Notes: a model not told the origin generated them from the sequence alone. Positions 5,057 to 16,391 are shown, counted from the first letter of the stretch. The stretch: DNA of 17,392 nucleotides from Spirulina sp. (GCA_051439525.1 JBFRWJ010000253.1:1-17392), one strand, 5' to 3'. Translations and numbers: made by a program.

Positions 5057-6682
5057 TTAATCCGAAGATTCTTTTTCCGTTTTGTCATGCAGCCAAATTT
5101 CCTGGCGATCGAGAGCAATAGGCATTTTAGCACGATCGCAAGCCCGTTTGAGGCGACGGCGAAATTCTCGTCCCACATCCCATTGCTTCAGGGGTTGGGT
5201 CTTAATCCAAATCCGCACGATCGTGCCGCGATTGCTAAATTCATCCAACCCTAAAATTTGCGGTTTTTCGAGAATAAATTCTTGCCAGTCAGGATCTCCG
5301 GCTAGATCGTCGCCGACTCGTTCTACTAATCTTAAAGCCTCGTCTATATCAACGCCATAACTGAAAGGAATTTTAATATCGGCTTGAGCATGACGGCTGG
5401 AAAGATTGGAAACAATTTTAATTTCACTATTAGGAATCGTAATTAAACGCTGTTCGGTATCTCGAAGTTGGGTAATTCGTAAGGTAATATTTTCCACGAA
5501 CCCAGTGACATTACCCACCGCAATGACATCTCCAACCGCATATTGATCTTCTACTAAAATCAAAAAACCGTTAATGGCATCTTTAATTAAATTCTGCGAT
5601 GCTAAGGAAATGGCCACCCCAATTAAACCTGCCCCTGCCAGTAAGGGGGCGATATTCACTCCCAAACTTACTAAAGCCAAAAATATCCCGACGATCGAAA
5701 GCAAAATCGTACTAATGCTTTTGGTCACGCTAGAAATTGTAGAAACTCGCTGTTGTAGCCTTTGCGTGCTGCGTCTGGGAATGAGTTCCGCACTTTCAAC
5801 AAAAGCGGCGAGGGAACGAGCGATGAGAATGTAACTCAAACGAATAGAAATATAAGTAAAGACTAAAATTACAACAAAAGCTAGATAAGATTTAAGTCTT
5901 CCCAAGATCAAAACCTGCCAAATACGAGTTTGAGGAAAAAGAGAAAGAATCAGTAATATTCCGGTCGTCCAGAGAGCCAGTTGTGCGAGCTGTCGGAAAA
6001 GACGACCTATTGCACTTAAATTACGATATTGTCTCAGATTTAAGCGAGTGGTCAGGGGGAGGGCATCAACGGATTCTGGGGAAGAGGGCGATCGCGCGAA
6101 TTGGGCGGGTAAAAGATTTAACGCCAAACTTATCAGCATCACCCCGATCGCGATGGCGATCGCCCATTGCGTTTGTTTCCGCACGTATTCGGGTTGACGT
6201 TCCGCTCGGGCGGTCTGAAATGCCTCCATGAGAGTCGTTTTTAAGGTTTCGGCATAAGTCTGATGCTCGCTTCCCTGCAAGCGAGCATCGAGATGAGTAA
6301 TCGTGAACAGATAGCGATCGTTGATGTAAAGGGTGGGTAAAGAGCGATCGGTGCGAACTTCAATCTTTAAGTCAGCATCTTGGCCTTCGAGATAGTTGTT
6401 TTTGATATTCCGCAAATTCTTCTGCACGTTCCGCACCCGTTCGGGAAGCTCGTTTTTGACACTGGTGATGGGAAAGATTGGTTTTCCATCCAATCTAATC
6501 CAAGCGATCGCAGTTTCCGTCTCACTCTTGGAAGTCGAAATGGTCGGGAGCGTATTTTCAAGGGGTTGAGGGAGAGCAAGTTGCGCGGAAACGGGAGACA
6601 CATCGTACATTCCCATCGCAAGGGCAGGCATTAAGAGCAACAAGCTCATCACAATCAGCGCGCGAAATTTCAATCGTTGCAT
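5057..6682 (-). CDS. Mechanosensitive ion channel, MscS family, with an N-terminal signal peptide and periplasmic domain
   Basis: The 541-aa ORF has the MscS pore-helix and beta-domain region LIKDAINGFLILVEDQYAVGDVIAVGNVTGFVENITLRITQLRDTEQRLITIPNSEI. A GGGAAAG Shine-Dalgarno-like sequence sits upstream of the ATG at 6682. Confidence 0.85.
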   Translation of the reverse strand: MQRLKFRALIVMSLLLLMPALAMGMYDVSPVSAQLALPQPLENTLPTISTSKSETETAIAWIRLDGKPIFPITSVKNELPERVRNVQKNLRNIKNNYLEGQDADLKIEVRTDRSLPTLYINDRYLFTITHLDARLQGSEHQTYAETLKTTLMEAFQTARAERQPEYVRKQTQWAIAIAIGVMLISLALNLLPAQFARSPSSPESVDALPLTTRLNLRQYRNLSAIGRLFRQLAQLALWTTGILLILSLFPQTRIWQVLILGRLKSYLAFVVILVFTYISIRLSYILIARSLAAFVESAELIPRRSTQRLQQRVSTISSVTKSISTILLSIVGIFLALVSLGVNIAPLLAGAGLIGVAISLASQNLIKDAINGFLILVEDQYAVGDVIAVGNVTGFVENITLRITQLRDTEQRLITIPNSEIKIVSNLSSRHAQADIKIPFSYGVDIDEALRLVERVGDDLAGDPDWQEFILEKPQILGLDEFSNRGTIVRIWIKTQPLKQWDVGREFRRRLKRACDRAKMPIALDRQEIWLHDKTEKESSD

Positions 6683-6832
6683 TTTTCTTTCCCTGTTTCT
6701 CTACCCTCGATCGATTGTAATACCAGTCCGCGATAAATAACGTCAACAGATTCAACGGGCTGTTAAAAACGGATAGACCCCACCATTTACGTTTTTACTG
6801 TGGTTTAATCCGGTACGACCTTGACCATGTAA

Positions 6833-6848
6833 GAGTTGAATTCAACTC
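6833..6848. promoter_or_regulatory. Perfect 16-bp palindrome GAGTTGAATTCAACTC in the divergent mscS/brnTA intergenic region. It is a candidate operator.
   Basis: Read directly from the sequence. It lies about 145-160 bp upstream of brnT. Confidence 0.35.
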
Positions 6849-7010
6849 GAGGATGGTGTCGATCTAGATAGAAAACTTTTAAGAGCGAGGCTGGGAGATT
6901 TTGTCGTGCGATCGCATCGATCCTGTAGAATAGGTAAAGCGTCACCCAAAACCTAGGCGATTCTCAATCTTTTGTTTTAAAATATAAAATATGAATCGAT
7001 TAATTTTTGA

Positions 7011-7268
7011 GTGGGACAACGAGAAGAATCTCATAAATCAAAAAAGCACGGTGTCTCATTTGAAGAAGCAAAATCCGTTTTTTACGACGATAACGCCATC
7101 CAGTTTTGGGATGAAGGAAATTCCGAAGTAGAAGACAGATTTTTACTACTTGGTAGAAGCTACAAAATGCGAATATTACTCATCGTTCATTGTTACCGAG
7201 AACAAGAATCGATAATTAGAATAATTTCAGCACGAAAAGCCACTAAAAATGAAAAGAAACATTATTGA
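7011..7268 (+). CDS. brnT: BrnT-family ribonuclease toxin (DUF497/COG2929). The ORF shown starts at GTG 7011. The ancestral N-terminus (ATG 6991, MNRLIFEWDNEKNLINQK) is in the +1 frame, disrupted by a one-A deletion in an A6 run at 7040-7045.
   Basis: It has KHGVSFEEA...IRIISARKAT, the BrnT signature. The FEWD motif is encoded upstream but in another frame. Confidence 0.75.
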   Translation: MGQREESHKSKKHGVSFEEAKSVFYDDNAIQFWDEGNSEVEDRFLLLGRSYKMRILLIVHCYREQESIIRIISARKATKNEKKHY

Positions 7269-7607: not shown

Positions 7608-8495
7608 CTAAATTTCAGCGTAAGCGCGATCGATGATATGTTTGGCGATGGTTTGCGTTCCCGTATGCTCGTAATAATTTGTTGTCATATCGAGAAAAGC
7701 GGCCAAATAATCGAGCTTATCATCGGCAATTTCAACGTATTTCCCCAACTGTCCGGTAATGCCTTCGACGCTCAACCCTTTAGACTCGACAAAGTCATTC
7801 ATCCATCCCGTGACCGAACCAAAAGCGTTGCCGACAAATGCCAATTTCCCCCCAGAATCACCCCCCGGAATCATCTCGCCAACTTTACTAAAAGTGGAAT
7901 GTTCCTCCAACTCATTCGCACTCAACCCTTCAATAACTTCTCCGGCTTTTTGGATAAAATCGGGACCTAAAGGAATCATGGCATCAAAGCAGATCAGCGC
8001 AGCCATGCGGATTAGCGATTCGCCGCTATAATCGGCCAAAGACTTGATAAAATCGCCGATATTATCTCCGGGAATGCCGTTGATCGAACAAAACGCCAAT
8101 AACTCGACAACTACCTTCAAGCAGAGATCGATACTCTGAGCTTTATCGGCTTTAGGAGTCAGTTTATTTAAAAAGCCGAGAAAACCGATTTTTTCTCCCA
8201 CTTTATTAGCCAGAGCAGCCGCTCCTAATGCCGTATCGGCATTATCGACGGTTTGATAAAGCCACATGGCCCGTTGATAGCCTTCCGATTTGTCATTGTA
8301 GAGCCAAATCACCCGCTCGCCAATTTGATGAACGAGATCGTCATCATCTTCTCCGGTGACTTGGCGAATCGTGTTTTTAAAACCGACAATATTTTCCCAT
8401 TCTCCCGGAACGATAAAATCGAGAGCATTTAAGGCTTTAACGGTGATGTTCCCCGTGGGAAGATTGTCTACGATTTCATAAAAAGGCTTACTCAT
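7608..8495 (-). CDS. Acidic hypothetical protein of about 295 aa. I do not recognise the family.
   Basis: It is a long ORF. GGAGA lies 6 nt upstream of ATG 8495 (MSKPFYEI). The listed ORF starts 4 codons earlier, at 8507. Confidence 0.6.
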   Translation of the reverse strand: MSKPFYEIVDNLPTGNITVKALNALDFIVPGEWENIVGFKNTIRQVTGEDDDDLVHQIGERVIWLYNDKSEGYQRAMWLYQTVDNADTALGAAALANKVGEKIGFLGFLNKLTPKADKAQSIDLCLKVVVELLAFCSINGIPGDNIGDFIKSLADYSGESLIRMAALICFDAMIPLGPDFIQKAGEVIEGLSANELEEHSTFSKVGEMIPGGDSGGKLAFVGNAFGSVTGWMNDFVESKGLSVEGITGQLGKYVEIADDKLDYLAAFLDMTTNYYEHTGTQTIAKHIIDRAYAEI

Positions 8496-8536
8496 TGTTG
8501 TCTCCAATATTGGTGATTTGTTTGCGCAATTTCATG

Positions 8537-9607
8537 TTACTTGACTAATCCAGCCAAGCCGGAAAGATTGAATTTTTTCAACCAATCTTTGCGATCGCTT
8601 TCGCTAAAGGCAGCATCCCGAGAGAGGACTTTCACTTGCAAGCGGTCTTCTACGAGGACTCCCGTTCCTTTTTTACCTTGTTTGGCGACGGGATAGCCTT
8701 GAATTTTTTCCTGGCTATCGGCATATTTGTTTGCCGAAGCCGGGGTGCTGACAATATCGGAAACCGAGAGGACAGCGACTTCTTTCCCGCGTTGTTTTAG
8801 TTTCGCCTGAGCAAATCCTTGCTTCTCTTGAGCGAAAACAACATCGTAACCGCTCCCCGGTTTGGGGAAGAATTTGTTAAATTGCGAACCTTGAATGGCT
8901 TCTTTGGCAACGGCAGTGGCTTTGCGCTTGCTGCTTTCTCGTTGCGCCTCTTTAAATTCTTGCTTGGTTTCCCGCTTGGTTTGTCGGTTTGGAGCCGTGT
9001 TGGCGGGTTTGGCGAGGTTTTGTAAACCGACGAGATCGAATTTTTCCAATAACGCCTCGCGATCGCTTTCGCTAAAGGCGGCATCCCGAGACAGGACTTT
9101 CACCTGAAAGCGATCGCTCACGAGAACGCCAGTCCCTTTGTTCCCCTGACTGGCTGAGGGAAATCCTTTAATTTGGCTCGTGCTGTTGGCATATTTTTGC
9201 GCAGCCGCAGGGTTGCTCACCGTATCGGCAATCGACATGACGGCTAACTCCTTACCGCCTTTTTTCCACTTTGCTTGGGCCAGTCCCGTTTTCTCTTGGG
9301 TATAGACGACATCGTAGCCATTACCGGGTTTGGGGAAAAACTTATTAAACTTTGCCCCCAGGATGGCATTCTCCGCAACAGCACTCGCTCCTCGCTTGCT
9401 GCTTTCTTTTTGAATTTGTTTGAGGGTTTTCTGAGGAGTACCTTCGGTGCTTTCTGGGGTTGGAGTCGTCGTGGTGACATCTTCCTGACGGCTTTCTCGA
9501 TCTGCCTGTGCGAACTCCGACGGCGTTGAGGACGAACAAGCGGTAAAGCCAAACACGGCTAGCAGAATAAAGATCGCGAATATCTTCTTGAATTTAAACA
9601 AGAGCAT
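8537..9607 (-). CDS. Lipoprotein with two tandem domain repeats of about 140 aa
   Basis: GGAGGG lies 4-9 nt upstream of ATG 9607. The signal peptide MLLFKFKKIFAIFILLAVFGFTAC ends in a lipobox cysteine. The two halves are clearly paralogous (FNKFFPKPG[NS]GYDVV...KGTGVL[VE]DR[FL]QVKVLSRDAAFSESDR in each). Confidence 0.75.
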   Translation of the reverse strand: MLLFKFKKIFAIFILLAVFGFTACSSSTPSEFAQADRESRQEDVTTTTPTPESTEGTPQKTLKQIQKESSKRGASAVAENAILGAKFNKFFPKPGNGYDVVYTQEKTGLAQAKWKKGGKELAVMSIADTVSNPAAAQKYANSTSQIKGFPSASQGNKGTGVLVSDRFQVKVLSRDAAFSESDREALLEKFDLVGLQNLAKPANTAPNRQTKRETKQEFKEAQRESSKRKATAVAKEAIQGSQFNKFFPKPGSGYDVVFAQEKQGFAQAKLKQRGKEVAVLSVSDIVSTPASANKYADSQEKIQGYPVAKQGKKGTGVLVEDRLQVKVLSRDAAFSESDRKDWLKKFNLSGLAGLVK

Positions 9608-9760
9608 CTTCCCTCCGTCAAAATTGGACTCAGTTCCCATTGTGGCTTGCAATTTTCAGATTAACGCAATCCTTAACTTTCCTTTACTGGGGATTGCAGA
9701 GGGCGAAAAAGAGAGTAAAAGGGAAAAATAGTCTTGCACGTTCGAGAAACCGAAAAAATA

Positions 9761-11020
9761 ATGCGGATTTTACTTTATTCCTACAATTACTATCCGGAAC
9801 CCATCGGCATTGCTCCCCTGATGACAGAATTGGCGGAGGGTTTGGTCAAACGCGGCCATGAGGTGCGGGTAGTGACGGCAGTGCCTTGGTATCCTAAAAG
9901 TGAGATTTACGAGGAATATCGCGGTCTTATGTATCTTGCCGAAGAACGGAATGGAGTCATTATTCAGAGGTGCTACGTGCGATCGAGTCCGAAGCGAACG
10001 TTTTTCAATCGCGCTTTATTTGAACTCAGTTTTATGGTTTTGAGCTTTTTTCAGGCTTTATTGGGCAAATACAATCAACGACCGGATATTTTAATCTTAA
10101 CGGTGCCGGGGTTGCCCGTAGGCATTCCCGCCTCCATTCTCGGTTGGATTTATAACTGTCCGACGATTTTAAATTTACAAGATATTTTACCCGATGCGGC
10201 GGTTCATGTGGGTTTATTAACGTCTAAAATTGCCATTAAAATTTTTACCCAATTAGAGAAGTATAATTATCGCACGGCGACGAATATTTCGGTGATTTCC
10301 CAAGGATTTACGGAGAATTTATTGGGGAAGGGCGTTCCGGCGGAAAAAATTACTCTGATTCCCAATTGGGTAGATGTGGACTTTATTCGACCTTTATCGA
10401 AAGAGGATAACGATTTTCGCCGCGAGAATGGGTTGGCGGGGAAATTTATTGTTTTATATTCGGGGAATATTGCTTTAACCCAAGGATTGGAAACCGCGAT
10501 CGATGCCGCAGGATATTTACAAGATATTCCCGAACTGGCTCTGGCGATCGTGGGGGATGAAAGGGCTTTAGAAAGACTGCAAGAATATTGTCGGCAAAAA
10601 GGCGTTAATAATGTCATCTTGCGACCGTTTCAACCGCGAGAAAAATTATCGGAAATGCTCTCGGCGGCAGATGTTGGTTTGGTGATCCAAAAAAGGAATG
10701 TGATTTCCTTTAATATGCCGTCTAAAATTCAGGTTTTACTGGCAAGCGGTCGAGCGATTATTGGCTCGGTTCCCAATACGGGGACGGCAGCAAAAGCGAT
10801 TCGAGAGAGTGGGGGAGGAATTGTTATTCCCCCGGAAGATCCCCAAGCTCTAGCCGAGGCCATTCGGGATTTATATGGCGATCGCGAACGGGTGAAACGG
10901 TTGGGAGAAGCCAGTCGCCAGCACGCGATCGCGAATTATGCTTTTTCTACGGCTTTGGATCGCTACGAGGCGTTATTCGCTAAGCTCTTATCTGAGAGAC
11001 GGCAAAAGAGAGGAAAATAG
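9761..11020 (+). CDS. Glycosyltransferase, family 4 (WcaI-like)
   Basis: MRILLYSYNYYPEPIGIAPL is a GT4 N-terminus. The C-terminal half shows a GT-B fold (E-x7-E region). The start is most likely at 9761 rather than the listed 9734. Confidence 0.8.
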   Translation: MRILLYSYNYYPEPIGIAPLMTELAEGLVKRGHEVRVVTAVPWYPKSEIYEEYRGLMYLAEERNGVIIQRCYVRSSPKRTFFNRALFELSFMVLSFFQALLGKYNQRPDILILTVPGLPVGIPASILGWIYNCPTILNLQDILPDAAVHVGLLTSKIAIKIFTQLEKYNYRTATNISVISQGFTENLLGKGVPAEKITLIPNWVDVDFIRPLSKEDNDFRRENGLAGKFIVLYSGNIALTQGLETAIDAAGYLQDIPELALAIVGDERALERLQEYCRQKGVNNVILRPFQPREKLSEMLSAADVGLVIQKRNVISFNMPSKIQVLLASGRAIIGSVPNTGTAAKAIRESGGGIVIPPEDPQALAEAIRDLYGDRERVKRLGEASRQHAIANYAFSTALDRYEALFAKLLSERRQKRGK

Positions 11021-11034
11021 AAGAGAATGGCTTC

Positions 11035-11343
11035 TTAATGCGCTCGGTAGGCTTTCGGGGTCATGCCCGTACATTGTCGAAACTGTTTGCTGAGATGGCT
11101 GTGGCTGTTGAACCCGCACTCTAAGGCGATGTCTACAATTAGGCGATCGCTTTGTTTTAACAACAGCTTTGCCCGTTCTACCCGTTGCTGGATCAGGTAT
11201 TGATAAGGAGAGATGCCCAAGGATTGTTTAAAGAGACGAATAAAATGAAATTAGCTCATGTCTAACAATTGAGCTAAATTTTCCAGTTTAATCTCTCGAT
11301 CTAAATAACGCGCTTTTGTTCTTTTGCCTATTGCAATTGTTCG
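11035..11343 (-). pseudogene. AraC-family transcription factor remnant. Only the C-terminal double HTH is present, with an in-frame TAA.
   Basis: The minus-frame translation is KARYLDREIKLENLAQLLDMS*FHFIRLFKQSLGISPYQYLIQQRVERAKLLLKQSDRLIVDIALECGFNSHSHLSKQFRQCTGMTPKAYRAH. The region upstream of it has stop codons in all frames. Confidence 0.7.
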
Positions 11344-11468
11344 GGATCGGAGCGACTGAGATTATTAGCTTATGCTGTTGTAATGACATCGATCGCAGCG
11401 TTTCTCAAGGCTTTAACAAAAGAACGTTCGAGAATATCTTCATCTAAATAAAATTTCATTTGACTCAT
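11299..11468 (-). pseudogene. DUF5615 (PIN-like toxin partner of DUF433) remnant. It has three in-frame stops and is truncated by the AraC fragment.
   Basis: The translation is MSQMKFYLDEDILERSFVKALRNAAIDVITTA*ANNLSRSDPEQLQ*AKEQKRVI*. Its start overlaps the DUF433 stop as ATGA. Confidence 0.65.
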
Positions 11469-11767
11469 ATCGAGCGACCTATTTTCGCTTCTGCGGCTAA
11501 GCGATCGTATTCGGTTTCCTCCGCCAAAATATCTGCCTCAATTCGTTCTCGGTTGACATAAAAATAAGCAAGAGCAGCATGAACTTGTGCTAGATTGAGG
11601 TGAGGTATTTCTGCTACAATTTTCTTAGCCGTCATTCCCATTTTATACCAAGTCGCAATGCGTTGAACGGTAATTCGAGTTTCATTAATACGAGGACGAC
11701 CTCCACAAATATCTGGAGTAGTCACAATTAATGTTCCAATATCAATAAGCGTTTTTGTCATCGTCAT
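11465..11767 (-). CDS. DUF433 protein (HTH antitoxin-like partner of DUF5615)
   Basis: The 100-aa ORF has CGGRPRINETRITVQRI...GMTAKKIVAEIPHLNLAQVHAALAYF, the DUF433 signature. Confidence 0.75.
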   Translation of the reverse strand: MTMTKTLIDIGTLIVTTPDICGGRPRINETRITVQRIATWYKMGMTAKKIVAEIPHLNLAQVHAALAYFYVNRERIEADILAEETEYDRLAAEAKIGRSI

Positions 11768-11888
11768 AATTTGAGAAGATTTGATTTCTGCTTTCCATTA
11801 GAATCAAAAATTAACCAGTTTCCAATCGGCATAAAAAATATTCAAACCGATAGAAAAGCGATCGCGCAAGCAACGAATTTATGATATT

Positions 11889-12236
11889 ATGAAGATCGAT
11901 GCAAACAAATCAAAAATAATGACGCAAACCAACTCCAAACAAAAACCGAGATATGGGAGAGTGTTTCCCGAAAAACGTCTCTCGCCAGAAGAAATCGAAA
12001 AACGCAGAGCAGAAGATAAAATTTTTGCAGAAAGATGTCACATTATTTTCGATCGCGTCAAACCCGAATTAATCCAAGACTATTACGATTGGTTTATTCT
12101 CATTGAACCCGATAGCGGTGATTATTTCATCGATCGCGAAAAAACAAGAGCTCGGGAAAAAGCACACGAAAAACATCCCAATAAAAAATGTCTGATTATG
12201 CAAATCAATGAAACTGGAGCTTGTGGTAGAATATGA
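11889..12236 (+). CDS. Small basic hypothetical protein (A1). It is the upstream partner of the retropepsin-like protease.
   Basis: The 115-aa ORF's stop overlaps the protease start as ATGA. A paralog lies at 12682-13032. Confidence 0.7.
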   Translation: MKIDANKSKIMTQTNSKQKPRYGRVFPEKRLSPEEIEKRRAEDKIFAERCHIIFDRVKPELIQDYYDWFILIEPDSGDYFIDREKTRAREKAHEKHPNKKCLIMQINETGACGRI

Positions 12237-12598
12237 TTGAAGGAGAATTTAATAGTCGAGGAGAATTATTTTTTGAGATTGATTTAATCCCTGAAGATGG
12301 AGATAGTATTCCAGTAATGGCACTTCTCGATACTGGGTTTACAGGCTGGATTGCACTCGATCGCCAAGATGCTGATAGTCTAGGATGGATTCTTACTAGC
12401 GACCCTCAAGAAATGCAAACTGCAGCAGGAATTGAGCGATTTAGCTTATATCAAGGGAAAGTCGCGATTGATGGGGAAGAATTTACAATTGAAGTGTTAG
12501 GAGGAGACCACCTCAACAATCTTCTTTTGGGTTTGCAGTGGCTGCGATCGCGAAAATTAATTGTAGATTATCCTCGAGGAATTCTGACTCTAGGTTAA
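12233..12598 (+). CDS. Clan AA (retropepsin-like) aspartyl protease, DTGF type (P1)
   Basis: The active-site motif is ALLDTGFTGW. The protein is about 120 aa. The hydrophobic-G-D-like C-terminal segment LLGLQWL matches TIGR03698-type bacterial/archaeal retropepsins. Confidence 0.75.
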   Translation: MIEGEFNSRGELFFEIDLIPEDGDSIPVMALLDTGFTGWIALDRQDADSLGWILTSDPQEMQTAAGIERFSLYQGKVAIDGEEFTIEVLGGDHLNNLLLGLQWLRSRKLIVDYPRGILTLG

Positions 12599-12681
12599 AA
12601 AAAATGAAACGCGATCGCGATGATTTGGTGAGAAAATAAAGATTAATACAAATGCGATCGCGAAAGAAACGAATTGATTAT

Positions 12682-13032
12682 ATAATGAAGATCGATGCCA
12701 ACGAATCAAAAATAATGACGCAAACCAACTCCAAACAAAAACCGAGATATGGGAGAGTGTTTCCCGAAAAACGCCTTTCGCCAGAAGAACTAGAAAGACG
12801 AAAAGCAGAGAGCGATCTGTTCCTAAAACGCTGCCATATTATTTTCGATCGCGTACAACCCGAACTGCTCGAAGAACATTACGACTGGTTTATTATCATC
12901 GAACCCGATAGCGGTGATTATTTTATCGATCCCGACGAACAAATTGCCAGAGCAAAAGCCCAAGAAAAACACCCCGAGCGCAAACGTTTAATTATGCGAA
13001 TTAATGAAACAGGAGCTTGCGGACGAATATGA
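12682..13032 (+). CDS. Small basic hypothetical protein (A2), paralog of A1
   Basis: It is about 75% identical to A1. The duplicated upstream 35 bp place the start at 12682, not at the listed 12652. Confidence 0.7.
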   Translation: MMKIDANESKIMTQTNSKQKPRYGRVFPEKRLSPEELERRKAESDLFLKRCHIIFDRVQPELLEEHYDWFIIIEPDSGDYFIDPDEQIARAKAQEKHPERKRLIMRINETGACGRI

Positions 13033-13397
13033 TTGAAGGAGAATTTAATAGTCGAGGAGAATTATTTTTTGAAATTGGCTTAATTTCAGCCGATGGCGAT
13101 CTTTTTCCGGCAATGGCATTACTCGATACAGGATTTACCGGTTGGGTTGCTCTCGATAACCAAGATATAGAAAGTTTGGGTTGGCAACTTGCCGACAATG
13201 CAACGCGAGATATGCAAACAGCCGCAGGAGAAAGCGAATTTTTTCTCTATCGCGGTAATCTACAAATTGATGGGGAAGAATTTACGATTGAAGCCTTGGG
13301 AGGAGACAACTTAAACAATGTTCTTTTGGGTTTGCAGTGGCTGAGAACGCGAAAATTAATTGTAGATTATCCCCAAAGAATTCTAACTCTGGGTTAA
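13029..13397 (+). CDS. Clan AA retropepsin-like aspartyl protease, DTGF type (P2), paralog of P1
   Basis: It has the motif ALLDTGFTGW. It has the same ATGA coupling to A2 (GRI* / MIEGEF). Confidence 0.75.
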   Translation: MIEGEFNSRGELFFEIGLISADGDLFPAMALLDTGFTGWVALDNQDIESLGWQLADNATRDMQTAAGESEFFLYRGNLQIDGEEFTIEALGGDNLNNVLLGLQWLRTRKLIVDYPQRILTLG

Positions 13398-13422
13398 AAA
13401 ATATTAAATCGCTTTGATAATG

Positions 13423-13492
13423 TTTTCGATCGCGTCAAACCCGAATTAATCCAAAATTATGACGATTGGTTTATTCTCATTGAACCCGATAG
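13423..13492 (+). pseudogene. Relic of a third A-type gene. It is a 70-bp fragment corresponding to the middle of A1.
   Basis: The fragment ttttcgatcgcgtcaaacccgaattaatccaa...gattggtttattctcattgaacccgatag is about 94% identical to 12047-12116. It has no start codon. Confidence 0.6.
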
Positions 13493-13507
13493 TTTTTTAA
13501 GAATTGA

Positions 13508-13673: not shown

Positions 13674-16280
13674 TTAAAACTCAGTGTCTTCTTCAGCTTT
13701 CGGTTGTACGATCAACCCATTCGCTGCACTAAACAAATTGATGGGATTTTTGCCATCGGTAATGAGCATACTTTGAATCCCCAAACCTTCCAATAATCGC
13801 GCTTGCATTTCCGGGCCCGCTTGCGCGATCGCGCGGATCGTTTCCGGTCCGATCGCTTCGACTTTCTGACGGTATTCTTCTGCCATAATTTCCGCCATAG
13901 CTCGAGATTTTTCCACCTCCAATTCATTCAAGGCTTGTTGATGGGCTAATTCCGCTTCCTGACGGGCTCTCAATTGCGTTAATTCTGCCTCAGCTCGAAT
14001 GCGTGCGGCTTCTGCTTCTTGCTGTGCCAAATTAACCGCTAATTGCCCTTCAATTTGTGCGGCTTCTGCCTTAGCTCTTGCCTGTGCGGTTGCCGTTCCT
14101 GATGCTTCAATTGAAGCATTTTCTGCTTGTAATTCTAGCAAATTTTTCCGCTCTGTTTCTGCCAGACCGCGATCGACAATTACCTGACGTTCCAATCTTG
14201 CTTTCGCCTCTTGTTCGATGCGATCGGCATCCCGTCGTGCCGCCGCTTCTTGGGCATCTGTTGTAATTTGAATCGCCAATTGTACGGATTTTTGTAGACT
14301 TTTTAAGGTTTCCGCATCGATGGGTTCGACGGTTTGAATATCCACATTGGTAATCACTAATTGATTAGCACTCATCCGGAACTCATCCCGAATGCGTCCT
14401 TGTTCATCCTGTCCAAAAACCGCCTGACGAATAATTCTCGCCGAATTGCGGTGAAATTCATCAAATTGAACCCCTGCAACTGCCCCTCGCACTCGAGATG
14501 CTACAGCCTTGCATACCGCCCCGACAAAATCCGGCACCTGAAACAATCGTGCCGCCGCTTGTTCGTCATGGCGATCGACATCAAAAAACCAGTTATAAGA
14601 CAGTTGCAACTGCAAGCGGGCGTGATCTGATGTTTCCACCGAAAAAATATCCGTCATAAAGTCTGGACCTAATAATAAAGCCAGAGATTTAATGACATTT
14701 GGAAGTTTGGGCTTTCCTCCTGATAAACTCAACACCGTAAAGGCTTCATCGGGTCCCAACATAACCAAATCGGGGCCGAATACCGTCCGCGCCGTTCTGT
14801 CTTTATAATCGTGAATTTGTACCGCCGCGTTTTGGGGAACGTGAAAAACCACCGCCCGAGTTTTATCTCGTTTTACGGGGCGAACTTTGGGCGGTTCGGA
14901 GCCTTCATCATGATGGCGACCGCGATCGCTAATGGGATCGCGGTTTTGTCCTAATAATTCCTCGACGACGGGGGGTAATTCTTTCGCCCACAATTCCTCA
15001 TAAGGACTCAATAAATACGCTTGCGGACCGCTTACGAGTTTTAATTCTCCGGTTTGGATATCCCGCACGTAAATGCCTTCATTTTTATCTAAAGGAATGG
15101 CGCGCCGTCGTTCTTTCACTTCCACTTCTACGGGAGGAATATAGTCCCTCGGTCCGACAATCGACCATAAATCTCCGGGTTGGCGAATGGTTTCATCGGC
15201 TTCGATAAACTCTTCTCTCGCCCGCAATAATAAGGCTTCTTGTTCCCCTAAAACATAAACTTCTTCGATCCCGCTTTCTAAAGATTCTCCCGGATGTAAG
15301 AAAAAAGAAGTGCGTCCCTGACGAATTTCCTGCAATCCCAATTGAGGTTTTCCCTCCCCATCAATGGGATCGACAACGATACACCATTCGCGATCGCTTA
15401 GAGTCGTAATTTCTACTTCTCCCACGACTTCTTCATAAACATCGGGAATGTGAATTTCTGCATCTTCAAACGTGACCAACCATTCATCTCCTGCCTTGCG
15501 CTGTCGTCCGAAAATGTCGTTAAAGGTGCGTTTCGCTTTTAAGTGAATAGCTTTTTGTTCGGTGAGAATATAGGCATCAATGATGTCTTGGACTTCTTCA
15601 TCGACCCCAGGTAAATACGCCCCTTCCTCTCTCACTAACCATTCTTCTCCCGCCCGGCGAGGGATGTCGTTGCGATCGCGGCAATTCTGTCTCGCTGATA
15701 ACCGCAAGGCTTGATTGGGCTTAATGGTAATGGCTTTCACGGTTTCCACCACCACCACTTCCACGCGAGGGATATAAGTGCCGGGTCCTTCAAATAACCA
15801 CTCATCCCCCGCTTGACGGGCGATCGTTTCTTCTTCTTCATCCACAACGAGAGTTTCGCTAAAATCGCGAATAGCACGCAAGCGCACGGCTTCATTCGTC
15901 TCCACCACCGAAAGCCGCGTCACCGCACTTGCCATTTCTTCTCCCGGATACAAAGGAAAGGGATCTTGAGCAAAACGAACCTCTTCATCCCCGTAATGCA
16001 GGCGAATCTGTCCGTAATTATCGGCGATCGGTTCCCCTTCCCCATCCCGCATGACGGGGTTGGCAACGAGGCAATAATGACGGGGCGGTACAATAATCAT
16101 GGGAGTTGGTTTAAGTACCAATCGCTCTGCATCTCCGAGAGTGAGAGTCTGAGGTCCCACTTCCAAGCGAGTTACTCCGGTATTGTTATCGAGAATGTGA
16201 ACGAATTGCTGGGGTTTGAGGCGAATTACGCCACTGGAAACGCTGGGGGCTTCATTTTTGGCAGAGATGTCGGATTTCAT
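13674..16280 (-). CDS. Major vault protein (MVP) homolog. It has the N-terminal MVP repeat domains, the SPFH-like shoulder, the cap-helix coiled coil and the cap-ring. The longest ORF extends to ATG 16406, but I prefer ATG 16280 (MKSDISAK...).
   Basis: Colinear similarity to eukaryotic MVP over the whole length. I estimate about 50% identity to human MVP from memory. Matching blocks include FVHILDNNTGVTRLEVGP, VPPRHYCLVANPV, FAQDPFPLYPGE, AGDEWLFEGPGTYIP, IPLDKNEGIYVRD, NAAVQIHDYKDRTARTVFGP, GPDFMTDIFSVETSDHARLQLQLSYNW, SRVRGAVAGVQFDEFHRNSARIIRQAVFG, and EAIGPETIRAIAQAGPEMQ...LITDGKNPINLF. Confidence 0.9.
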   Translation of the reverse strand: MKSDISAKNEAPSVSSGVIRLKPQQFVHILDNNTGVTRLEVGPQTLTLGDAERLVLKPTPMIIVPPRHYCLVANPVMRDGEGEPIADNYGQIRLHYGDEEVRFAQDPFPLYPGEEMASAVTRLSVVETNEAVRLRAIRDFSETLVVDEEEETIARQAGDEWLFEGPGTYIPRVEVVVVETVKAITIKPNQALRLSARQNCRDRNDIPRRAGEEWLVREEGAYLPGVDEEVQDIIDAYILTEQKAIHLKAKRTFNDIFGRQRKAGDEWLVTFEDAEIHIPDVYEEVVGEVEITTLSDREWCIVVDPIDGEGKPQLGLQEIRQGRTSFFLHPGESLESGIEEVYVLGEQEALLLRAREEFIEADETIRQPGDLWSIVGPRDYIPPVEVEVKERRRAIPLDKNEGIYVRDIQTGELKLVSGPQAYLLSPYEELWAKELPPVVEELLGQNRDPISDRGRHHDEGSEPPKVRPVKRDKTRAVVFHVPQNAAVQIHDYKDRTARTVFGPDLVMLGPDEAFTVLSLSGGKPKLPNVIKSLALLLGPDFMTDIFSVETSDHARLQLQLSYNWFFDVDRHDEQAAARLFQVPDFVGAVCKAVASRVRGAVAGVQFDEFHRNSARIIRQAVFGQDEQGRIRDEFRMSANQLVITNVDIQTVEPIDAETLKSLQKSVQLAIQITTDAQEAAARRDADRIEQEAKARLERQVIVDRGLAETERKNLLELQAENASIEASGTATAQARAKAEAAQIEGQLAVNLAQQEAEAARIRAEAELTQLRARQEAELAHQQALNELEVEKSRAMAEIMAEEYRQKVEAIGPETIRAIAQAGPEMQARLLEGLGIQSMLITDGKNPINLFSAANGLIVQPKAEEDTEF

Positions 16281-16311
16281 CGTTCTTCGGGGGTGAGGTG
16301 CGCTATTTTCG

Positions 16312-16317
16312 ATTGTA
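16312..16317 (-). promoter_or_regulatory. Putative -10 box TACAAT for the MVP gene, about 30 nt upstream of ATG 16280
   Basis: The minus strand reads GGCTACAATCGAAAATAGCGCACCTCACCCCCGAAGAACGATG. The -35 is weak (CTGGAC at 17-nt spacing). Confidence 0.3.
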
Positions 16318-16391
16318 GCCTCTGTTTTCGGTACGTCCAGTTTTAAGGGGATAAAGACTCGAATGCAAGCCTCCGCCTTAAGCCGGAGGAA

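Follow-up and report, generated by a model that had tools for sequence, protein, structure and literature searches.

A widespread gene pair joining a small upstream partner to a retropepsin-like protease: a candidate toxin-antitoxin-like module built from new protein families

Introduction

Type II toxin-antitoxin (TA) systems, such as RelBE, Phd-Doc and VapBC, consist of two small overlapping genes that are spread patchily and in multiple copies over chromosomes and plasmids, where they lie near partition (par) genes and leave behind orphan antitoxins and decayed toxins. The TA toxins that we know of are nucleases, kinases and acetyltransferases, none of them an aspartic protease of the retropepsin fold, and no description of an aspartic protease linked to a TA system was found in our literature searches. 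Here, we report a computational analysis of a two-gene cassette that is present in two tandem copies in a 17,392-nucleotide stretch of DNA (hereafter, the window), a contig of a metagenome-assembled genome (MAG) of Spirulina sp. (GCA_051439525.1 JBFRWJ010000253.1; locus tags AB4290_115xx). Each unit of the cassette encodes a small protein with a basic N-terminus, denoted A, followed by an overlapping gene for a small retropepsin-like aspartic protease, denoted P. The A-P pair resembles type II TA systems in the size and overlap of its genes, with the presumed neutralizer first, in its mode of spread and decay, and in the RelB-like N-terminal domain that some A proteins carry. It differs from them in having an aspartic protease of the retropepsin fold as its presumed toxin and in the lack of a DNA-binding domain in the usual A.

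Other described systems are comparable in particular respects. With ImmR/ImmA and the Xre-COG2856 pairs, A-P shares the order of a gene for a small protein and, overlapping its end, the gene of a dedicated protease, residence on mobile DNA, and a possible cleavage site in a flexible arm. In those systems, however, the protease is a zinc metalloprotease rather than an aspartic, retropepsin-like one, the first gene encodes a helix-turn-helix repressor, which A is not, and there is an associated mobile-element program, of which none is evident for A-P. The staphopain-staphostatin, SpeB-Spi and AprA-AprI pairs likewise encode a dedicated small inhibitor beside a protease, protecting the producer; these are secreted virulence proteases with the inhibitor gene usually in second place, whereas A-P is apparently cytosolic, mobile and multi-copy.

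Small stand-alone prokaryotic retropepsin-like proteases, the relatives of COG5550 and TIGR03698, have to our knowledge been cataloged for more than 15 years without a known role. P resembles the TIGR03698/AF_0612/COG5550 family in its length of about 120 amino acids, its DTGF motif, its full-length profile alignment and its retropepsin fold. In its passages on the small prokaryotic DTGF proteases, a 2009 survey of clan AA states that 'little is known' about them and mentions no partner gene (PMC2642776). The fold is also shared by Rickettsia APRc (5c9b), the best structural match to P, and by Pseudomonas RimB and RloA-C. What sets these enzymes apart from P is that they are anchored in the membrane, secreted, or components of the RimABK ribosome-modification complex, and that none of them is known to be paired with an A-like gene. 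The first-pass annotation of the window described the P family as lacking a characterized function in bacteria; this applies to the subfamily of P, but not to APRc, RimB and the Rlo enzymes, which have been studied.

The same annotation regarded the pairing of A and P as undescribed, and our searches of 8 million full texts, from which subscription journals were mostly absent, indeed returned no paper on it. We find that the A-P module is widespread and may constitute a TA-like module formed by new families of toxins and antitoxins. In the loci analyzed here, a specific upstream partner accompanies one large branch of the small prokaryotic retropepsin-like proteases throughout, and the pair has the genomic behavior of an addiction module. 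Should the TA-like reading be confirmed, TA biology would gain a new biochemical class of toxin, the aspartic protease, together with a new antitoxin fold. There would then be an explanation for an element that recurs on the plasmids and in the genomic islands of cyanobacteria, retropepsin research would have a natural protein inhibitor to study, and the ancestry of retroviral proteases would acquire a cellular context.

Results and Discussion

Anatomy of the duplicated cassette

The first unit contains A1 (11919-12236, + strand), a gene for a 105-amino acid protein annotated as hypothetical, and P1 (12233-12598, +), which encodes a 121-amino acid retropepsin-like aspartic protease with an LLDTGF motif. 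The ATG of P1 shares the tetranucleotide ATGA with the stop codon of A1. Following an inter-unit spacer that includes the upstream region of the second unit (12599-12714, +; HIP1 palindromes at 12611 and 12654, upstream ATG at 12685), the arrangement recurs, with the same ATGA overlap, in A2 (P0002; 12715-13032, +), a 105-amino acid paralog 77% identical to A1, and P2 (P0125; 13029-13397, +), a 122-amino acid protein annotated as 'aspartyl protease' that is 74% identical to P1 and retains DTGF. Profile searches recover the cassette with E-values of 1e-56 to 1e-59, far beyond chance. At the DNA level, the alignment of the two units spans about 800 bp, with conservation from about 11843 onward, and takes in some 45 bp 5' of the first ATG. 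The upstream region of unit 1 (11843-11918, +; HIP1 at 11858, in-frame upstream ATG at 11889), which is repeated before unit 2, likely comprises the promoter and 5' leader. Nine promoter-like sites, against 5.3 expected, were found in a promoter scan, none of them convincing, and a terminator scan detected no terminator between the units. Downstream of P2 lies a relic of a third A gene (13407-13493, +), VFDRVKPELIQNYDDWFILIEPDS, which covers codons 38-66 (29 codons) and matches the A profile with E = 1.6e-11. With 66 of 69 bases the same as in A1, against 56 of 69 for A2, the relic is nearer to A1; of a third P, no remnant was detected.

The two-unit structure, the ATGA overlaps and the repeated upstream region had all been proposed in the first-pass annotation and are confirmed by the open reading frames (ORFs) and the DNA alignment, and the relic that it reported is likewise real, with the extent given above. 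Its A starts fared less well: 11889 and 12682 had been taken as the start positions, and while the ORFs themselves stand, the upstream ATG of A2 is actually at 12685, and the true starts are likely to be 11919 and 12715 (MTQTN...). This 105-amino acid form is favored because the deposited annotation agrees with the family alignment and the lengths of homologs, 82 of 124 A homologs being 105 amino acids long.

Because P sits in the -1 frame relative to A, a retrovirus-like, Gag-Pro-style A-P fusion generated by -1 frameshifting was considered as well. This candidate was rejected: the junction contains no slippery heptamer, a stop codon closes the P frame only a few codons before the start of P (13017 is where the P2 ORF opens), and P keeps an ATG of its own in all 124 of 124 pairs.

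P is a retropepsin-like protease and A represents a new family

Both P proteins align over nearly their full length with the TIGR03698 profile (clan_AA_DTGF), P1 with E = 1.5e-10 and 41.4 bits and P2 with 33.2 bits. Since these scores are below the curated cut-off of 57.35 bits, P1 and P2 belong to a divergent sister group of that family. The gathering thresholds of the Pfam families gag-asp_proteas (23.1-24.0 bits against 28.2) and Asp_protease_2 (21.1-23.0 against 24.3) were not reached either. A Foldseek search with the AlphaFold2 (AF2) model of P (pLDDT 88.6) returned Rickettsia APRc 5c9b as the top match (E = 7e-6, 27% identity), followed by the HIV-1, XMRV and EIAV proteases and the Ddi1 RVP domain; judged by this model, P is a retropepsin-fold protein. 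D33, T34 and G35 are invariant among 31 P homologs, LLDTGF is present in both P1 and P2, and DTGF is kept in 122 of the 124 unique intact P. By analogy with retropepsins, all of which must do so, P would homodimerize to form a single active site. The protein is acidic (pI 4.1), and hydropathy analysis found no transmembrane segment in either A or P, suggesting that P is probably cytosolic.

The first-pass annotation had raised the prospect that A might turn out to belong to a well-characterized family. We detected no match for it in Pfam, NCBIfam, PADLOC, PHROGs, the sequences in the PDB or the folds in the PDB. One source labels a homolog (P0090) as DUF5678 domain-containing, though an hmmscan for DUF5678 (PF18929) found no match in A1, A2 or P0090. 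The best match to this domain, in a distant relative (P0346), has E = 0.045 and 14 bits against a cut-off of 23.2, and the precomputed DUF5678 domain is present in 0 of the 240 A-family and A-like homologs listed. In the A variant P0270, a weak similarity of the N-terminus to DUF2281 (E = 0.079) falls below the threshold and was left unused.

In the AF2 model of A (pLDDT 80), a low-confidence basic N-terminus is followed by a long helix (residues 23-51), a beta-beta-alpha-beta core and a C-terminal tail of lower confidence, such that the low-confidence termini around the confident core, as modeled, resemble the binding regions of many antitoxins. The N-terminal 20 residues have a pI of 11. A is conserved over its whole length, and two peptides stand out, one at either end: the motif R-[VIL]-F-P-[ED] (R14, F16, P17), which occurs in 116 of 124 A proteins and reads RVFPE in A1, and the C-terminal tail, INETGACGRI in A1 and NETG-x-CG-x-I in the family at large. 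Invariant or nearly invariant residues further include C40, Y56, W58, E63-P64 and, within the tail, N97-E98-T99-G100. Two rare A variants (P0006 and P0057) have a RelB-like antitoxin domain at the N-terminus (32 bits, the Pfam cut-off being 27), which is joined to the A core by an RRGR-x-FPE motif; in P0057, an overlapping P comes next.

Conservation of the pair and asymmetry of its decay

A profile search against 1.84 billion representative proteins yielded 297 A-like clusters, and a genome scan yielded 499 relatives in GTDB species genomes, of which the best 80 were examined; all of these 80 are cyanobacterial. For the analysis of pairing, 80 genome loci chosen by A and 80 metagenome loci chosen by P were pooled. 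The first-pass annotation had suggested that A genes might be conserved neighbors of DTGF proteases in other genomes, and this is what we observe, in these 160 related loci as well as in distant phyla. Pairing is close to obligate in the 160 loci, and ATGA joins the two genes in every one of the 124 unique intact pairs.

Of the 96 evaluable intact A genes in the A-chosen set, 65 have an intact P behind them at the 4-nucleotide overlap, 20 a prematurely stopped P and 11 no P, and an intact A precedes 64 of 64 intact P. Conversely, the 72 evaluable intact P of the P-chosen set are accompanied by an intact A in 67 cases and by a partial or divergent A in five, and never lack A altogether. In the pooled sets, an intact P is decayed or missing for 37 of 170 intact A, whereas the 136 intact P comprise 131 with an intact A, five with a partial or divergent A, and none without an A-like gene. 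The asymmetry between A without P and P without intact A is significant across these two differently sampled sets, each consisting of the best 80 matches (Fisher p = 3e-6). The Spirulina genome itself illustrates it, its third A (P0003) being an orphan. About 14 of the 80 genome loci contain arrays, either of two to three units or of the form A-A-P, and there are several loci per genome.

The two units of the window have diverged at synonymous sites to an overall dS of about 0.7 (Nei-Gojobori), with dN/dS ratios of 0.20 for A1/A2 and 0.28 for P1/P2. Both pairs of paralogs are, therefore, under purifying selection, in agreement with the earlier impression that they have been kept intact. Identity between the units is a mosaic: the proportion of synonymous differences (pS) is 0-0.2 in codons 1-20 of A (together with the leader) and in codons 1-15 and 95-121 of P, and about 0.5-0.7 outside these tracts. 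Such a pattern points to gene conversion between old copies, which we favor over functional constraint on the nucleotide sequence because the third A of the genome (P0003) differs in the same tracts. The HIP1 palindrome GCGATCGC, of which about 0.3 copies would be expected by chance, occurs 35 times in the 17.4 kb, at positions that include 11858, 12544, 12611, 12654 and 13655, so that the unit borders are flanked by it. HIP1 at these borders may have helped the recombination behind duplication and gene conversion.

Plasmids and mobile context

Between 22 (identified by P) and 27 (identified by A) cyanobacterial plasmids carry the cassette, including four plasmids of a single strain, Tolypothrix PCC 7601. 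On small mobilizable plasmids (34-43 kb), it is found in the maintenance region, divergent beside ParA and/or next to a tyrosine recombinase. A 29-kb Gloeothece plasmid has an orphan A by the recombinase, with a PIN-domain pair nearby, and a 474-kb plasmid has IS200/IS605 genes and a reverse transcriptase flanking the cassette. The neighborhoods vary between the loci examined, and no conserved target, exporter or modification genes were found beside the cassette.

Chromosomal copies lie amid other small toxin-like modules, such as DUF433 pairs and an EndoU fragment. At one locus (L170), a DUF433 gene (weak Pfam match) and its unannotated small partner are located a few kilobases from the cassette. 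The same locus (6001-7210) contains an orphan A, a P cut to 17 codons, and then a 109-amino acid EndoU_bacteria-like fragment and a 160-amino acid gene. EndoU is a polymorphic-toxin nuclease, and this arrangement looks like the swapping of one toxin module for another.

Distant relatives

Distant relatives of A, found in Melainabacteria, Fervidibacter (Armatimonadota), Anaerolineae (Chloroflexota) and Planctomycetes (Planctomycetota), are 80-100 amino acids long and have no basic arm; the helix and an 'AIEP-SGDYF' core are common to them. A P-like gene of about 120 amino acids follows the distant A at six loci, namely L081 and L084 (A-A-P order), L165, L168, L169 and L184, the last of these, from an Anaerolineae MAG, with an A-P-A-A arrangement. 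The Planctomycetes copy is an orphan A. In Fervidibacter (L165, 4001-6044), there are three tandem A-P units, in two of which P reads DLG rather than DTG. The P-like protein from Melainabacteria (L168, 1462-1875) has NLE for DTG and, having lost the catalytic Asp, is probably non-catalytic. In L169 (2565-3486), P follows a 190-amino acid protein with a double A-like domain and, at 59.2 bits, passes the TIGR03698 cut-off. Two HicAB pairs lie near this double-A/P arrangement on the same contig.

An addiction-type interpretation and its alternatives

We consider it about an even chance that A-P is a selfish TA (addiction)-type module in which A neutralizes the cytosolic aspartic protease P. This interpretation is based on the coupled and ordered pair of small, overlapping, co-oriented genes; on its patchy, multi-copy, mobile and plasmid-borne spread, including the location beside partition genes; on the finding that P never occurs without A while A outlives P, that is, the presumed toxin gene decays more readily; on the arrays of diverged pairs; and on the RelB-like fusions. 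The purifying selection on both genes, the predicted retropepsin fold of P, the lack of transmembrane segments, the contrast of a basic A arm with an acidic P, the low-confidence termini of the A model, and the location of the cassette, with its lower GC content, in an island of decayed small genes also speak for it. The resemblance to TA modules that had been pointed out for the window alone is, accordingly, strengthened by the decay asymmetry, the plasmid partition-gene siting, the fusions and the recurrent tandem multiplication.

Under this interpretation, A would be translated first and be coupled to P through the ATGA overlap. We infer that A would bind P and hold it inactive, most likely via a conserved flexible peptide at one of its ends, which would act as a pseudo-substrate or as a dimerization blocker: either the N-terminal motif R-[VIL]-F-P-[ED], Phe-Pro being the classic site of retropepsin cleavage, or the C-terminal NETG-x-CG-x-I tail. 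Retropepsins of the HIV type cut Phe-Pro and Tyr-Pro bonds, and their dimer sheet is built from their termini. If the cassette were lost or A depleted, free P might cleave cellular proteins and cause growth arrest, and such post-loss arrest would stabilize plasmids and genomic islands. Tandem copies would then be diverged cognate pairs that arose by unequal recombination and were partly homogenized by gene conversion. A bolder form of this proposal, to which we assign somewhat less than an even chance, is that A-P is the founding TA family with a retropepsin-like toxin and an antitoxin of an unseen fold, present in Cyanobacteriota, Melainabacteria, Armatimonadota and Chloroflexota (and as an orphan A-like gene in Planctomycetota), that it stabilizes cyanobacterial plasmids, and that the Phe-Pro arm makes A a self-cleaving or pseudo-substrate inhibitor.

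Several observations weigh against the addiction-type interpretation. Canonical A has no recognizable DNA-binding domain, so that autoregulation is unsupported, and a search for inverted repeats at the cassette found HIP1 palindromes only and no operator-like repeat. Some distant P-like proteins lack the catalytic Asp, so that proteolysis is not a general property of the superfamily. Our search found no phage or viral copies of the cassette, and the PHROGs and PADLOC scans gave nothing significant, with a weak peptidase match for P (E of about 0.02). The decay asymmetry, too, must be read with the different sampling of its two sets in mind. Mutual information between the two proteins is above the shuffled-pairing null, the top pairs joining A90-92 with P47, P56 and P101, but this covariation is confounded by shared ancestry and cannot be interpreted because the linked genes share their phylogeny.

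Among the alternatives, a switch made of a regulator and its dedicated protease, of the ImmR/ImmA or Xre-COG2856 type, appears unlikely, although less so than the others. P would in this case cleave a regulatory or DNA-binding A at the Phe-Pro bond upon a signal, switching a program instead of poisoning the cell. The immR-immA genes have the regulator first and the overlapping protease second, which is the gene order and overlap of A-P, the R-x-F-P-E motif is located in the low-confidence basic arm, and its place in the RelB-fused variants is precisely the link from the DNA-binding domain to the core. Yet canonical A has no detectable DNA-binding domain, the distant members keep P even though they lack the N-terminal arm, the varying neighborhoods include no conserved target genes, and a simple switch would not be expected to leave orphan A genes in surplus or to form arrays of pairs.

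The universal presence of an A-like gene wherever P was found, and the tight translational coupling of the two, could also mean that A is an obligatory helper, that is, a chaperone, activator or trans-acting prodomain that folds or activates P for a benign task, such as turnover or substrate processing; bacterial retropepsin-like enzymes such as RimB do have specific cellular substrates. This explanation, however, accounts neither for the decay of P with retention of A and the orphan A arrays nor for the multi-copy, patchy, plasmid-borne spread and the siting beside partition genes, and we regard it as quite improbable. More improbable still is a precursor peptide with its maturase, P releasing the basic N-terminal 16-mer or the C-terminal tail of A as a signal or bioactive product. 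Conserved terminal peptides do flank a folded core, and A does contain a Phe-Pro site, but no conserved exporter or modification genes are near, conservation of A extends over the full length of the protein rather than over a core peptide alone, hydropathy gives no transmembrane segment for either protein, and distant homologs lack the N-terminal peptide.

Surroundings of the cassette in the window

The cassette region is bounded by a glycosyltransferase gene (9734-11020) and a convergent gene for a major vault protein (MVP) homolog. Between these lie small genes and gene fragments: an AraC fragment, a DUF433 gene with a DUF5615 stub, the two full A-P units and the fragment of the third. Directly upstream of the cassette, the DUF433 gene (11465-11767, -; 100 amino acids, Pfam E = 1e-20) is accompanied by no more than a 32-amino acid stub of its usual partner, DUF5615 (PIN-like). 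This decayed TA-like pair (11370-11767, -) identifies the region as an island made up of small mobile modules. The GC content is 40% in the cassette and 45% in the window. A 61-amino acid ORF (11035-11220, -) is a truncated regulator fragment, since it consists of the C-terminal HTH_18/AraC domain alone, and adds to the 'junkyard' character of the 11.0-13.6 kb interval. Farther upstream, two ORFs (7608-8507, -, 299 amino acids; 8537-9652, -, 371 amino acids) have no Pfam match at E <= 0.001. The MVP gene (13674-16406, -) is convergent with the cassette, as already recognized in the first-pass annotation, and encodes a 910-amino acid homolog of the eukaryotic protein in which every repeat type is represented, as is the shoulder domain (Vault, Vault_2/3/4 and MVP_shoulder; E down to 1e-62).

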